Shown piece by piece: positions 3,186 through 61,800 of a DNA stretch of 64,000 nt. The notes beneath the pieces were generated by a model. That model saw only the letters and a program-made list of their open reading frames with translations, was not told the DNA's origin and searched no databases. This stretch comes from Octopus vulgaris (Eukaryota). The stretch spans positions 60,884,001 to 60,948,000 of the forward strand of contig OX597815.1 in assembly GCA_951406725.2 (NCBI GenBank), given 5' to 3'. Each line of letters starts with the position of its first letter. The stretch's first letter is position 1. The translations under genes and the position numbers were made by a program.

Positions 3186-3485
3186 TTTATAATTAGGGTT
3201 CAGCAGAGATTTGCTTCACCACGTACCGAAGTTTAGAAATAGCAGTCAAAAAATCTTAGCTATTCTTTCTACTTTAAAAGGGGCTCCCAGAAAAACCAAA
3301 GTTCTTGAAAACAATCCACGCAGGCAAAAGGGAAAAATAACGAAAATCAATCGGTATTAGGTTATCCACGTACGCGCGTTTCGGAATTAGATCGGTATAA
3401 AGAATAAATAGCTATACCTTACCCGATCATTTTCGGCTCATCAGCGTAGGATTCCAGATAACAAACTACTGTTTCTCTCTGTAGT
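3186..3485 (-). mobile_element. non-coding HHR-bearing element in (TA)n, sharing its 3' terminal segment with the 560-bp family
   Basis: 3186-3280 aligns by eye with 21355-21460 and 27381-27485; contains an HHR. Confidence 0.7.
3364..3452 (-). ncRNA. type I hammerhead ribozyme
   Basis: cuacg-CUGAUGA-long stem II (gaucgg...ccgauc)-GAAA-CGCGCG-UA-cgugg: paired stem I, palindromic stem III. Confidence 0.85.
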
Positions 3486-3566
3486 ATATATATATATATA
3501 TATATATATATATATATATACATATATATATATATATACATATATACATATATACATATATATTAA

Positions 3567-3780
3567 CACGAGCATAAGGATGCGCGAAGCATCAACCTGT
3601 TTAGGAATAGGAGTTAAAGTCCCAATTTAACCGTCTAAAAAATGCCACAATAATGTTATTTTCTTAATTCTTTATCCGTTATCTCGTATACTGTTAGTTT
3701 TTATTACGTTTTTTTTTTAGGTGGCTGAATCGAGACTATTTCTAAACAGGTTGATGCTTCGCGCATCCTTATGCTTCGTG
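3567..3780. repeat. about 215-bp foldback element with about 44-bp inverted arms
   Basis: cacgagcataaggatgcgcgaagcatcaacctgtttaggaatag (3567-3610) is the near-perfect reverse complement of 3736-3780. Confidence 0.85.
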
Positions 3781-3941
3781 CTAATTTAAAATGTTATAGT
3801 TATATAATGCTAAACATACATACATATATATATATACATACATACATACACACACACACACACACACACACACACACACACACACACACACACACACACA
3901 CACACATATATATATATATATATATATATACATATATACAG

Positions 3942-4550
3942 CTATGATCACCAGCCAGTGTCAAATTAATCACAGAACATGAGGTGATCCAACGAAGCTA
4001 CACGAAGAAGATAGCCTCTGTGCAGCATATAAGCTATTAGGAAAGACTAAAGAGATTAAGACTCTATTCCTTAGAGCGTAGGCGAGAAAGATATGCCATA
4101 ATATACATCTGGAAGATCCTGGAAGGACTTGTCCAACCTTTGGCATCGAGAGTTACACAAATACTAGAACTGGGCGCCACTGCATAGTGCCAAGGACTCC
4201 AAATTTGCCATCAAGATGTAGGACAAGATACTGTGATAGCCTGGGCTTCAGAGGTTCACAGCTCTTCAATATCCTTCCGAAGGACCTGAGAGACCTGCAT
4301 GGGGTGGATGCAGATGTCTTTAAAATAAAGCTGGACCTCTTCCTGTCAGGTGTCCCAGATGAACCAACTTCACGGCAGGAGATGCAGATGAAGGCAGCTG
4401 TATCAAACTCTCTCATGCACCAAATGTCAAATGCTAAAAAGCATTCGTGAAGTAAAATCATGTAGCAAGACCGAATGGTGGTGCCCCAGCATGGCCACAG
4501 CTCGTGAGCTGAAACTAGATAAAATAAAATAAAATAAAAAAATAAAAAAT
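3942..4550 (+). mobile_element. CR1-group LINE 3' fragment
   Basis: Reads ERLKRLRLYSLERRRERY...GSQLFNILPKDLRDL..FKIKLDLFL..VPDEP, followed by an (ataaa)n tail. Confidence 0.85.
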
Positions 4551-4646
4551 GATGCATGCATACATACATATACATACATACATATATGTATATATATATA
4601 TATATATATATATATATATATATATATATATATATATATATATATA

Positions 4647-58400: not shown

Positions 58401-58779
58401 ACTACTGCCTGCTACTAGCCACTGTCCACCATACACACACATACACACACACGCACACACTCACACACACACCCTCGTTTTCTCGCACACCTTTTTTACC
58501 ATTCCCTCTTTGATTCAGCTCTCCTGTTTTTAAAAAACATTTTCCTCCTTTTTTACCACTTCCGTCTTTTCAGTATGTGACCTCGTGAAGACTACCTGCA
58601 ATTTTTTTTCCTCTGTCCTCCCGTCTCGGGATCTCTCTTTCTCCTATGTTTCCGACGAAGAGCTCCGCTCGAAACGTCATACCCTCCTTCTTCTATTTTC
58701 CTGAGCGCCTAATAATAATAATACTGTAATTGTTCCACGTGTTGTTGTTTTTTCTGTTTTCCCGTTTGGATTAACCTTA
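55432..58779. mobile_element. 3.35-kb (CA)-rich non-coding foldback with minimal HHRs at both ends
   Basis: 55432-56154 is the diverged reverse complement of about 57905-58779. HHRs at 55519-55549 (minus) and 58648-58682 (plus): CCGACGA-a-gagc ucc gcuc-GAAA-CG-UC. (TA)n flanks. Confidence 0.8.
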
Positions 58780-58821
58780 TATATATATATATATATATAT
58801 ATATATATATATATATATATT

Positions 58822-61230
58822 GTTCTAGGTAATTTCACTCCTAATATTAAAAAATAAAAAAAAATAAAAGGTTGAAATTCATAATTATTATTTGTACGAT
58901 GTTGAAATTGTTCCGACAGTATTGCCCAAATGATATCGGTATCACTTTTAAAATCCACCCAAGGCTTGGTCCCCGTGCCATACGTCCTCTACAGAAATCA
59001 TGCTCTCAGCACATCACAACACTAAGACAGAACTACATCTCCTCAACTGGACCTGTTCTTTTTAACATCATTCCAAAACATATAAAGGAGGCAAAAGATT
59101 TCATAACCTTCAAAATGTTCCTGGTTGAATATCTCCAACAAATTCCAGATAAACCATCTACACCCGGATATACTGCTTCAAACAACAAACAACTCTTTAA
59201 TCGAATGGGCAATGGTGCCTAAAAATAACTATACAAAAATACATTACTAAATGTCTTTTCCAAGTGGCGCTATTAAGTTAGCTATGGCCTGGGCCAATGT
59301 AGCCGAAACCTATCTAAGTATGTAGTTGTTGTTGTTGTTGTTGTTGTTGTTGTTGTTGTTGTTGTTGTTGTTGTTGTTGTTGTTGTTGTTGTTGTTGTTG
59401 TTGTTGATGATGATGATGATGATTTACAGGGTCATTCAGTTAACTGAAAGTATCATTTCAGTCACCTACTCGGATGTTTATTTATAGAGCGGTTTAGCTA
59501 ACTGTGAGTATCTTTTCAGTCATCCATTCAGGTGTTTTACTTAATGAGTTTACAGGTTTACCCGTGATCCATTCCTGTCTCATTCGCTACAGTCGTGGAA
59601 GTATTTCAAACAACACCATATGATTAAAAGCGGACTGTCACATTTGCTATAAATAAAGAACTGTCGAGTTATCAGGAGTTGATTGATAAGCAGTTCACTG
59701 TGAGCCGTGTAACATATATGAAGCACAGAACCCAAATGCCGATGTATCTCAGACTTACTAGAAATGAGAAATTAAGTCTTGTAAAGCTCGAGTTCACACT
59801 ATGATACACAATGAAGATTATGCCATAATTAAACACATTGGTGAATATCATCATAGTTCGTGTGCTTCAAAACCCAAAGTTCGCAAAACTTTAGCGGACC
59901 TAAAGGCACAAGCAGCTGCTTCCCAGGAATCATCTTGTTCCTTAATTGCGACTGCTTGTGAAAAGCTTGGTGAAAATGAAATGGCTCCCATGCCCTCCTC
60001 TTCGTGTGTAAGTCACAATATAAGGAACTGGCGTCTAACAAAAGTAATTGCCCCTCCAATCCCTCAGAGTCGATTTGCTTATGAGATACCTGATGAATAC
60101 AAGTTCCTGGATAGAGGCGAACTTTTCTTGCTGTTTGATAGTGGTGAAACTAATGTAGAGAGATTACTTGTGTTTATAATTTAGTGAATGTAAAACACTG
60201 GGCAGGTGATGGAACTTTTAAGTGCTTCCCAACTGTATTTTATCAGTCGTACACGCTTCATGTTCAAATGGGTTCATTCAATGCTCCGCGATTGTTGGCA
60301 TTACTTCCAAACAAAAGTCAAGGAACTTACGCCTGCCTTTTTTATAAGCTAAATGAATTACGTCAAAGACTGAGTCCTGAAGACGTTATGGTGTATTTTG
60401 AAAAAGCGCACATTAGTAGCATTTTATCTATATTTCGTAGTGCTTCTATCTCATGTTGACTTTTTCATCTATCTCAAAATGTGTTCAGAAAAGTATGTGA
60501 ATTTGACTTTAAGGAAAGACACCATCATGATAATGAGTTTAGCATTAACATCAGATGGTTTTCAGCGCTGGTTTTCTTTCACTCGATGATGTGATTGGCG
60601 GATTCGTGATCATGTAGATAACCACGATCTTCCACAAAAACTTGTGTCCTACATTGAATTATCGTACATAGGATGCGTGCGAGGTAGAGGAAATGGACAA
60701 CGAAGAACTTTTCCTTTGTTTCCCATTGATAGTTGGAATGTCCGCTTTAGAACAGAATCGGATATGCCTCGAACTAATAACCATTTGGAAGGATATCACA
60801 ACGCACTACAAAGTTCTTTAACTTGCATACATCTAAACCTATGGAAATTAATTACTGCATTGAAAAGGGAAGAACACTTGGCACAACTGAGAAAGGTTAA
60901 ATTTGATCGAGGTGAGATCTACGGGACCATAAAAAGCATAAAGATATACAAAAAAAGTGGCTGCAGAGAATTATTGAGCGATATACTCCCGAAAATAAAA
61001 TGGATTTTTTGCGAGCAATAGCTCATAACCATCACCATTATTGAAGCTTTTAGTAATATTTCTATGGTTTACTGTACTTTTTATTTTATCTTTATTCAAC
61101 ATATTATTATTTTTTCTAATATCGGGAGTGAAATTATCTGGAGTGAAATTTTACTGGCAGTCAAATTACCAGGAATCAAAAAATATTAAGTGTGAAATAC
61201 TCAGGAGTCAGAGTCAAATTACCAGTCACC
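58822..61230 (+). mobile_element. MULE (Mutator-like) DNA transposon, transposase pseudogene about 59640-61030
   Basis: WAGDGTFK..P..FYQ.YTLH, LLPNK...TY, FEKA, LFHLSQ, TNNHLEGYHN; terminal ggtaatttcactcc mirrored by repeated gagtgaaatt at 61124-61230. Confidence 0.8.
58900..59320 (+). mobile_element. CR1-group LINE 3' fragment nested in the MULE
   Basis: GPVLFNIIPKHIKE..FK..L..YLQQIPDKP; the 3' end recurs inverted at 46981-47050. Confidence 0.75.
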
Positions 61231-61499
61231 ATATATATATATATATATATATATATATATATATATATATATATATATATATATGTATGTATATATATAT
61301 ATGTGTGTGTGTGTGTGTACATGTGTATGGTTGTATATATACGTATAAATATAAATGTGTGTGTGTGGGTGGGTGTGCATATATGTGTTTCACGCGAGTG
61401 TGAGTGAGCATATGCGTATATGCACATGTACGTGGATGTGCGTGCGCGCATGTGTACGCATGTACATACGCGCATACACGAATTCTATGAGAATTTTTT

Positions 61500-61800
61500 A
61501 CTTTCTCCCCTTTCGAGTTTTTTCCCTTTATTTAACGGTCATTCTAATAGTTCTTTTGTTTGTCTTAATAACGGCCATCTTCATAGTAATTTCCTTTTGT
61601 TTAACGGTCATTTTCATAGCATTTTTGTTTGTCTTAATAACTAACGAGATGCCAGAGCAGAATTCCGCCCCGACATCCGAAACTCGGAGTTTTATTATGG
61701 CAACCGAATAATTGTCACATATTGTATGACAGATATATTCCTCTATTTACATAATATCGAGGTCTCATTTATTCTTTTGTTGTCTTACCATTTCTATCAA
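61500..61800 (+). mobile_element. solo pLTR of the Hydra-PLE family; HHR at 61635-61697 (G5A)
   Basis: uaauaa-CUAACGA-gaug...cauc-c-GAAA-CUCGGAG-UU-uuauua; matches 29545-29812. Confidence 0.82.

Follow-up and report, generated by a model that had tools for sequence, protein, structure and literature searches.

Hammerhead ribozyme motifs of Penelope-like element 3' ends and short non-coding units in a 64-kb stretch of the Octopus vulgaris genome

Hammerheads in Known Retroelements

Minimal hammerhead ribozymes (min-HHRs) have been described from the pseudo-long terminal repeats (pseudo-LTRs) of Penelope-like elements (PLEs) (PMC4209133), and type I hammerheads from the non-LTR retrozymes of metazoans (PMC7229834; Li et al., 2026, 10.64898/2026.07.22.740005). 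Here they are compared with a stretch of 64,000 nucleotides from Octopus vulgaris (GCA_951406725.2, contig OX597815.1, positions 60,884,001 to 60,948,000), hereafter the window. Analysis of its sequence makes it quite probable that the window holds minimal type I hammerhead folds in PLE 3' ends and in short non-coding units likely borrowing Penelope enzymes, which would have piled up through 3'-anchored copying. The association of PLEs with hammerheads is itself already known (2014, 2020).

The octopus motifs resemble the min-HHRs of PLE pseudo-LTRs in being of type I, with a short stem I, a palindromic helix III and, in several families, a nucleotide bulged out after A9. They are likewise spread over many families, occur mostly as single copies from truncated PLEs, form opposite-strand pairs a few hundred bp apart and include U3-A8 covariants (PMC4209133). 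They differ in number, the octopus estimate being ~10x the highest count given there (9,000, Xenopus tropicalis) by a different descriptor, and in their family-wide A6U, U4C, G3-C8 and A3-U8 cores and frequent U.U and A.A at 10.1-11.1. Natural U3-A8, U4C (in a viroid), A6C and U10.1-U11.1 hammerheads have been described and are active or partly active, with activity reduced for U4C and A6C, the latter being slow (PMC3088659). These are rare single cases, whereas in octopus such states are fixed in families of thousands, and the accessible text of that paper names no natural A6U, G3-C8 or A3-U8.

What does the hammerhead do in a PLE? Its cutting in vitro is poor, one example is dispensable for insertion, and some clades seem to be without it. 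The octopus genome presents a natural mutational series in families of thousands (C3-G8, U3-A8, G3-C8, A3-U8, U4C, A6U), including a young family with intact open reading frames (ORFs), and this series lets one ask whether the elements need the cut or only the fold.

Hammerhead Motifs in the Window

A preliminary description, made from the letters of the window alone, had listed about 27 motifs, ten of them intact. A strict-core scan (CUGANGA...GAAA...UH, with the helices scored) gave eight matches at a score of at least 7, whereas 60 local dinucleotide shuffles averaged 0.48 (maximum 2) and the reversed window had none. A stricter descriptor, which permits C4 plus a bulge at stem II, found seven, against none in 50 shuffles. 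The window has 36% G+C and 97 microsatellite blocks, and its motifs are more frequent than in dinucleotide-shuffled sequence. An initial descriptor demanding a 10.1-11.1 pair recovered one site and was abandoned as too strict. The descriptor used for intact motifs accepts any Watson-Crick 3-8 pair and is satisfied by 11 of the ~28 motifs in the window.

Comparison with a library of motifs from other loci found homologues for 25 window motifs, and one further motif was recognized by descriptor; together these comprise 24 of the 27 listed sites and two motifs absent from the list, 6414(-) (decayed, G17) and 63045(+) (G3-C8 core). Across the motif itself, 23 of the 27 listed sites show homology to hammerhead families at other places in the genome; homologues also exist for 37035 and 20660, the single one of 20660 being decayed. 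The list thus stands for the 25 of its 27 sites that match multi-copy hammerhead families and for 22833, which fits the motif with no homologue among the loci compared. It does not stand for 29865, which consists of GAAA-CAGCUG-UA and stem I only, lacks a core and has no homologue among the loci compared.

All ten sites listed as intact show CUGANGA, GAAA, a short palindrome or near-palindrome, UH and a stem I of 4-6 bp, with defects of stem II, spacing or the 10.1-11.1 position. Junction-proximal stem II pairs are absent from 3364 and 22833, an additional A follows GAAA in 36756 and 38069, and 10.1-11.1 is U.U in 21544, 22439 and 34101 and A.A in 46651. Sites with a canonical core have the type I core of C3 U4 G5 A6 N7 G8 A9, G12 A13 A14 A15.1 and U16.1 H17 and three helices, with stem I open. 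The other 17 had been taken for variant or decayed cores; several are family-wide variant states (U3-A8, A3-U8, U4C, A6U) and some are decayed copies, leaving 29865 without a core of either kind. The families number ~15-17, more than the dozen first supposed. Insertion events number ~22, fewer than the sites because five pairs (21544/22439, 29446/29645, 36756/38069, 48444/48745 and 55519/58648) are the inverted halves of one insertion each.

Selection for the hammerhead structure is visible in features that the search did not impose. A pattern that left everything free except the core and the outer pair of helix III was used to collect 30 loci. Their four inner letters form an exact palindrome in 21 and, with G-U pairs, in 29; stem II is present in 25 and a stem I of at least 4 bp in 14. 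At 30 loci from a mostly-noise pattern, an exact palindrome occurs in ten, with G-U also in ten, and stem II and stem I in one each. The palindromes differ by family and range from 2 to 10 nt, giving the short helix III able to pair between copies that characterizes PLE-type min-HHRs. Pattern, fold and carrier analyses all bear out the original assignment to minimal type I hammerheads of PLE or retrozyme type with a palindromic helix III.

Carriers of the Motifs

The preliminary description placed most motifs in non-coding parasites of PLEs, which is borne out only in part: five of the 27 sites are shown to lie in such elements, in circularly permuted units of 471 and 558 bp; nine are instead 3' ends of PLEs (Neptune-like and Hydra) and three are probably Hydra-derived PLE 3' ends. 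Pfam recognized no PLE family among 15 proteins. Two profiles built from relatives were used in its place; they cover Neptune-like and Hydra proteins, so that other PLE clades upstream could escape. For one window protein, the two best-scoring named relatives come from Octopus bimaculoides. With them, PLE ORF remnants were found 170-800 bp upstream of motifs 4842, 7348, 18926 and 31639. For nine window sites and their families the min-HHR lies in the 3' pseudo-LTR of a PLE with a reverse transcriptase (RT) and GIY-YIG ORF. Full elements ending in hammerheads were found at three other loci, L171 (U4C), L175 (A6U) and L208 (Hydra).

The element at 17516-19000 belongs to a young Hydra family whose 150 scored matches are all 98-100% identical, with frames of up to 718 aa. 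Read by eye against PMC8557442, the 717-aa frame of L208 carries the Hydra-clade motifs (RWK, DKT, CxCx5C, CxxC and CxH, with a C-terminal GIY-YIG), and (TA)n flanks are also shared. The Hydra elements of that paper are reported to have canonical HHRs, whereas the young octopus family has C4. L171 has the Cx4CxxC linker and C-terminal GIY-YIG of the Neptune clade (PMC8557442), hence the label Neptune-like, with Nematis a candidate as well. The 55519/58648 family ends this full element, which has a 3-kb CA-rich 3' untranslated region (UTR), and its copies are mostly short and TA-flanked. L175, an element that aligns through both ORF and 3' end with window 31543-33459, terminates in the 31607/38505 family. 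In L358 and L360, which are mutual duplicates and share upstream sequence with L359, the 48444/48745 family is found 424-443 bp past the ORF end.

The insertions have PLE anatomy, with a fixed 3' end, variable 5' truncation, an inverted 5' piece and an AT-rich or (TA)n target; the inversion of 5' pieces has been reported for PLEs before (PMC8557442). Among 120 motif loci, partners within 1.5 kb were inverted at 36 and direct at five, and an upstream ORF was present at seven, some pairs being counted from both sides. The proposed (TA)n association holds for most: in four sets of 30 loci, TA repeats lie within 450 nt of 28, 28, 22 and 9. The exception is the 48444/48745 family, TA-flanked in only 9/30.

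Several side observations concern these elements. The Neptune-like 3' UTR (L171:4650-8450; window 56182-58820) includes ~2.5 kb of degenerate CA-repeat, a possible origin of the genome's CA microsatellites. L061:1450-2170 (-) encodes a third type of PLE C-terminus with GIY-YIG, unlike both profiled groups. Two alternative 3' ends ~70-90 nt apart occur in the 471-bp unit (L001-L030) and the Hydra PLE (L191-L220), longer than the 30-40-bp PLE "tail". The inverted pairs at 36/120 loci would form long RNA hairpins if transcribed and, speculatively, substrates for adenosine-to-inosine editing.

Among the non-coding units, those of the 46651 family have the ribozyme preceded by the 3' end of the same family, with a period of 463-473 bp in 17/21 copies; the period of the 21544/22439/27771 family is 557-566 bp in 4/6 copies. 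Placed on the 471-bp circle, 28 of 40 segments (two from the same locus, and one the ruler) end at two points, the 5' ends are scattered and ten exceed one unit. Full-length copies span the cleavage site, and the template was therefore presumably uncut, multimeric or religated. The longest ORFs of the units are 49, 24 and 54 aa, and their circular folds beat shuffles (z -3.4, -6.1 and -7.9). Non-coding units of 471, 558 and 534 bp, each with one type I hammerhead, occur in tandem in L014, L158 and L190, as expected of retrozymes. True tandem arrays comprise 534 bp x3 at L190:4373-5441 and ~361 bp x4 with U3-A8 cores at G000:C1:8134351-8135463.

Metazoan retrozymes, too, are AT-rich and non-coding; their units measure a few hundred bp, contain a type I hammerhead, fold stably as circles and co-occur with PLEs (PMC7229834; Li et al., 2026). 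The octopus units, 471-558 bp long and known from DNA, differ from those accounts in being mostly dispersed and partial (0.6-1.7 units), with PLE-style inverted 5' pieces, two fixed 3' ends and no long tandem arrays, and so add dispersed, PLE-style units to the known repertoire. None of the sequencing runs listed is recorded as RNA. Contigs of four runs guessed to be RNA overlap the 471-bp unit in part, but contigs cannot show ends, level or circles, and the junction between units is present in DNA as well. The 63045 element measures 202-209 bp between fixed ends in 25/25 parsed copies (29 loci), with clear flanking duplications of 10-14 bp, judged by eye, in seven. No PLE ORF lies within 1.5 kb of this family, except the window's own neighbor.

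Core Variants

All four Watson-Crick 3-8 pairs occur as family states, and unpaired combinations are single cases at shuffle level (3/19 in the genome sample described below). The invariant U4 and A6 are violated in the U4C and A6U families, which are accordingly termed hammerhead-like variants. The G3-C8 form has 3,358 exact matches, and 96 of the first 100 show G3 and C8. Its stem I is 7 bp long, its stem II has 5 bp and a bulge, and its helix III is palindromic. In the A3-U8 family, AUGAAUA is present in 20/26 aligned copies (the 24 of 30 loci with the anchor, plus two added); stem I has two-sided changes, and two loci, L225 and L247, are intact. As family evidence a general A3-U8 pattern was rejected, being mostly noise (4,360 matches vs 2,750 in the control). 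U4C has 7,954 exact matches in one family, and C4 is present in 25/25 of the rows listed for the young Hydra family.

The A6U form has 19,829 exact matches, with U6 in 94 of the first 100. A homology set of 26 copies from 900 kb (23 in the 800-kb sample) has U6 in 26/26 and leads to an estimate of ~80,000 copies genome-wide. Positions C3, U4, G5, G8, A9, G12, A13, A14, A15.1 and U16.1 are each at least 92% conserved, while N7 takes all four letters (commonest 35%) and H17 is A, U or C, never G. Two candidate assignments were dropped: 37072 as an intact U3-A8 family (its relatives carry C3-G8) and 31607/38505 as simple decay of a canonical family (A6U is the family state).

The published min-HHR descriptor demands "cuganga" (PMC4209133), and A6U, U4C, G3-C8 and A3-U8 cores therefore escape it. 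Rfam hammerhead models gave no window match at gathering score and, in E-value mode, no hammerhead among the 150 listed of 432 weak matches, which microsatellite matches dominate. Both routes undercount, as the lack of Rfam matches in a window of ~28 motifs illustrates. Literature searches found no natural A6U, G3-C8 or A3-U8 hammerheads, the most relevant paper (Lunse et al., 2017) being outside their coverage; "hammerhead" with "G3-C8" returned an engineered variant only, and "A6U" twister ribozymes only. Searches on octopus or cephalopod ribozymes and octopus Penelope elements returned no hammerhead census and none of these natural variants, and "ribozyme" occurs 0 times in the main text of a 2026 octopus repeat annotation. 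Family-wide A6U, U4C, G3-C8 and A3-U8 cores are thus apparently undescribed.

Abundance Across the Genome

The genome (2.80 Gb, 227 contigs) was sampled in 10-kb stretches, 80 in all (799,800 bp), taken at fixed, round positions spread over 30 contigs. The sample holds 33 intact motifs (1-3 in shuffles), or 41 per Mb; the corresponding densities are 172 for the window and 150 for 100 kb of flanking sequence. The density of the window, at ~4x the sampled mean, therefore does not hold genome-wide, as had been entertained. PLE-coding sequence makes up 10% of the window, compared with 0.5% in the sample, which marks the window as a PLE-rich region. By bootstrap, intact-looking motifs are estimated at ~109,000 (67,000-154,000) genome-wide. 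With decayed homologues and the A6U family included, the sample holds 92 (shuffle 3), or ~322,000 genome-wide (242,000-406,000); the homology library is biased to window families, and its window/sample ratio is an upper bound.

Whole-genome pattern counts agree in kind. A canonical core with a 6-nt helix III gave 51,967 matches (2,694 with the reversed-pattern control), a 2-nt helix III 38,272 (6,841), overlapping slightly with the 6-nt set, and U3-A8 cores 26,571 (5,345), although one unrelated repeat makes up, by eye, ~1/6 of the first 100 of these last. The excess of the 2-nt class alone is ~11 per Mb, which, on genome sizes that we assume, is presumably near that of published species.

Published min-HHR counts are ~9,000 in Xenopus tropicalis, 4,000 in coelacanth and 2,000 + 1,300 in Schistosoma mansoni (PMC4209133), and hammerhead counts reach >6,000 in a coral, ~5,000 in a mussel and up to 120,000 in axolotl (PMC7229834), whose genome is 28 Gb; the giant squid paper lists 235 hammerheads by Rfam (PMC6962438). 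The octopus genome is near the top in hammerhead number and probably above published species per Mb, with descriptors that differ between counts. The suggestion of an exceptionally ribozyme-rich genome thus survives in a weaker form: the genome is very rich, but its rank against published counts is not a like-for-like comparison.

Proposed Origin and Predicted Activity of the Motifs

In the process envisaged, a source element would be transcribed and its RT-endonuclease would nick AT-rich, mostly (TA)n DNA. Copying would start from one fixed position, 40-300 nt beyond the ribozyme, as shown for an anole PLE (PMC11167929), and early RT stops would yield insertions that keep the ribozyme and lose the gene, often with an inverted 5' piece, an anatomy that is observed and from which we infer the enzymology. 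Non-coding units bearing the same signals would ride along on Penelope enzymes. Through the palindromic helix III, two copies in tandem or rolling-circle RNA of the source elements would exchange strands and be cleaved in dimeric form, probably helped by protein, and the resulting unit-length RNA may circularize. Solitary or inverted copies would be unable to form cis dimers and would decay, and most genomic copies (solitary, inverted, decayed) are likely inert. The Watson-Crick 3-8 families (C-G, U-A, G-C) likely still cleave in source elements; in the U4C, A6U and A3-U8/G12U families cleavage is likely slow or dependent on help from protein. Attenuated-looking cores are found in the most abundant and the youngest families, and fast cleavage is therefore probably dispensable for copying; dimeric min-HHRs of PLEs have low activity (PMC4209133), and a protein-assisted HHR was dispensable for insertion in vitro (PMC11167929).

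Several results count against this account. Direct tandems, required for cis dimers, are scarce (5/120), and cleavage was reported for only 1/9 retrozyme dimers in a 2026 preprint. By nearest-neighbor estimates the strand-swapped dimer lies 10.6-20.3 kcal/mol below two monomers at 10/10 sites, which fits the dimer model of PMC4209133, but any palindrome favors a dimer, and the monomer hammerhead is the free minimum-energy fold at 0/10 sites. Most A3-U8 copies also have U at G12, so that this family may be plain decay. A parent element was not found for 10/27 sites, nor for the G3-C8 element.

Could the fold persist without the cut? It is possible, if doubtful, that in the dominant families the hammerhead is now a non-cutting structure, a binding or priming signal for the PLE protein, with the variant cores catalytically dead. 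The uniform U6 of an A6U family that is otherwise so conserved and has so many exact matches would suit this, as would U4C fixed in a young family with intact ORFs, HHR mutants that left insertion in vitro unaffected (PMC11167929), Naiads that thrive without canonical HHRs (PMC8557442) and the activity lost in vitro with U4C and A6C (PMC3088659). However, the A6U copies, with N7 free and H17 never G, show the pattern of freedom of a cleaving hammerhead, and the U4C viroid variant remains infectious (PMC3088659); the other columns of the young A6U family are conserved too, shared descent accounting for part. A wider proposal, which we put forward tentatively from the sequences, is that the A6U and U4C lineages are tuned-down, non-cutting or protein-switched folds still selected by the Penelope machinery, alongside natural G3-C8 and A3-U8 cores; clades reported without hammerheads may then carry variant forms, and the genome may be the densest animal ribozyme-like landscape.

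Somewhat less probable is that most motifs are independent non-coding retrozymes replicating as circular RNAs, with PLE 3' ends a minority. A PLE ORF lies within 1.5 kb upstream at only 7/120 motif loci, three non-coding families are circularly permuted with stable circular folds, the G3-C8 element is fixed-ended and ORF-less, and short U4C copies often begin at one point. Against this, the absent ORFs are explained by 5' truncation and by 3' UTRs that reach 3 kb, circular permutation was observed only in those three families, transcripts of tandem arrays yield identical junctions without circles, and the most abundant traced families (A6U, U4C family A, the 48745 family and Hydra) end full PLEs. 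Domestication, in which the motifs regulate host transcripts through intron or UTR cleavage or double-stranded RNA for editing, is very improbable: sheer copy number and the long hairpins expected of inverted pairs speak for it, but the motifs decay freely, with 11 of ~28 in the window intact. Chance matching in AT-rich, repeat-rich DNA can practically be dismissed. Loose patterns do gather noise, as in the general A3-U8 and U3-A8 searches, and site 29865 fails, but shuffled and reversed controls, unforced stems and palindromes, and family homology refute it. Spread by 3'-anchored copying of PLEs and of units that likely depend on them remains the preferred account.

Other Features of the Window

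The features of the window are collected in Table 1.

Table 1. Hammerhead motifs and associated elements in the window (positions of the 64-kb stretch; empty cells, nothing reported).
Positions	Strand	Feature	Basis or relatives
3371..3444	-	Canonical-core hammerhead with helix III CGCGCG and an eroded stem II; short copy with TA flanks	70% to intact L010:1013
4818..4842	-	Hammerhead, U3-A8 core (family-wide covariant), helix III CCGG; 170 bp past PLE ORF end	Related motifs 143-171 bp past PLE ORFs in L315, L322, L327
5012..6050	-	PLE ORF remnant, RT thumb to GIY-YIG, Neptune-like group	Profile search
6350..6414	-	Decayed hammerhead (G17), kin of 534-bp tandem non-coding unit	79% to L190
7319..7348	-	Decayed A3-U8-family copy, within PLE 3' UTR	Homology
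7555..8149	-	PLE ORF remnant upstream of 7320 motif	Profile search
17516..18697	+	5'-truncated copy, young Hydra-clade PLE (intact 717-aa frames elsewhere, at 98-99% identity)	Profile and homology
18926..18976	+	Hammerhead, U4C core, the family state of young Hydra PLE 3' UTR	Descriptor and homology
19313..19352	-	Hammerhead, C4 core, helix III CAGCUG; family mixes U4/C4	Homology
20662..20693	-	Weak C4-core hammerhead with helix III CAAUUG; its single homologue is decayed	Motif and homology
21351..22682	.	Inverted-pair insertion, 558-bp non-coding circularly permuted unit; hammerheads 21547-21590(-), 22443-22486(+)	
22838..22912	-	Hammerhead-like: core and stem I intact, stem II missing, helix III mismatched; without homologue among the loci compared	
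25747..25776	-	C4-core hammerhead, its stem I disrupted in this copy; family intact elsewhere	
26357..27195	+	PLE ORF remnant of A3-U8 family; 558-bp-unit element directly after	
27777..27827	+	Top-scoring hammerhead of the window; 558-bp unit family	
29403..29748	.	Inverted pair, kin of Hydra PLE 3' end; hammerheads 29451-29501(-, U6 in that copy), 29650-29700(+)	
29867..29891	-	3' half only (GAAA-CAGCUG-UA and stem I), coreless: not a hammerhead as present	
31612..31639	-	Decayed A6U-family copy, 3' end of upstream Neptune-like remnant	Window 31543-33459 aligns with L175 (ORF and motif)
32421..33463	-	Neptune-like PLE ORF remnant	Profile and alignment
34106..34183	+	Hammerhead, canonical core, U.U at 10.1-11.1; same family as 36756/38069	
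36719..38195	.	Inverted pair; hammerheads 36762-36840(-), 38075-38153(+), extra A after GAAA in both	
37040..37072	-	Hammerhead, U3-A8 here (relatives C3-G8); 311-bp element nested between 29-bp direct repeats 36880-36908, 37220-37248	
38508..38535	-	Decayed A6U-family copy	
46406..46971	+	471-bp non-coding circularly permuted unit with inverted 5' piece; hammerhead 46657-46714 (A.A at 10.1-11.1, helix III CCAUGG)	
47302..47361	+	Older copy of 46657 (471-bp unit) family; C3 to U without A8	
48380..48852	.	Inverted pair, PLE 3'-end family (2,584 exact matches); cores 48484(-), 48750(+); helices I and III broken in both	
55363..58820	.	Inverted pair, long CA-rich 3' UTR of Neptune-like PLE; U4C hammerheads 55519-55545(-), 58652-58678(+), each with a broken stem I	Full element L171
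61641..61691	+	Decayed (G5A) hammerhead, Hydra-related family	
63045..63081	+	Intact hammerhead, G3-C8 core; ~204-bp non-coding element with fixed ends	

At 36880-37248 one hammerhead element is nested within another, which suggests mutual insertion. Two older Hydra-like PLE remnants lie at 53488-54860 (+) and 61859-62490 (+), with no hammerhead found in their 3' flanks, and self-inverted segments at 30813-31217 and 3501-3848 have no detected hammerhead. Remnants of a non-LTR element with a C-terminal restriction-like endonuclease, in (TAA)n, are present at 11369-12250 (-) and 10886-11089 (-), with 35 tblastn matches among the loci collected; we take them to resemble the R4/Dong group. The two frames at 59768-61021 (+) have no significant Pfam match and look, by eye, like what we presume to be a broken Mutator-type transposase. 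Finally, 16858-17537 and 24989-25660 form a local duplication of 680 bp with 94% identity.

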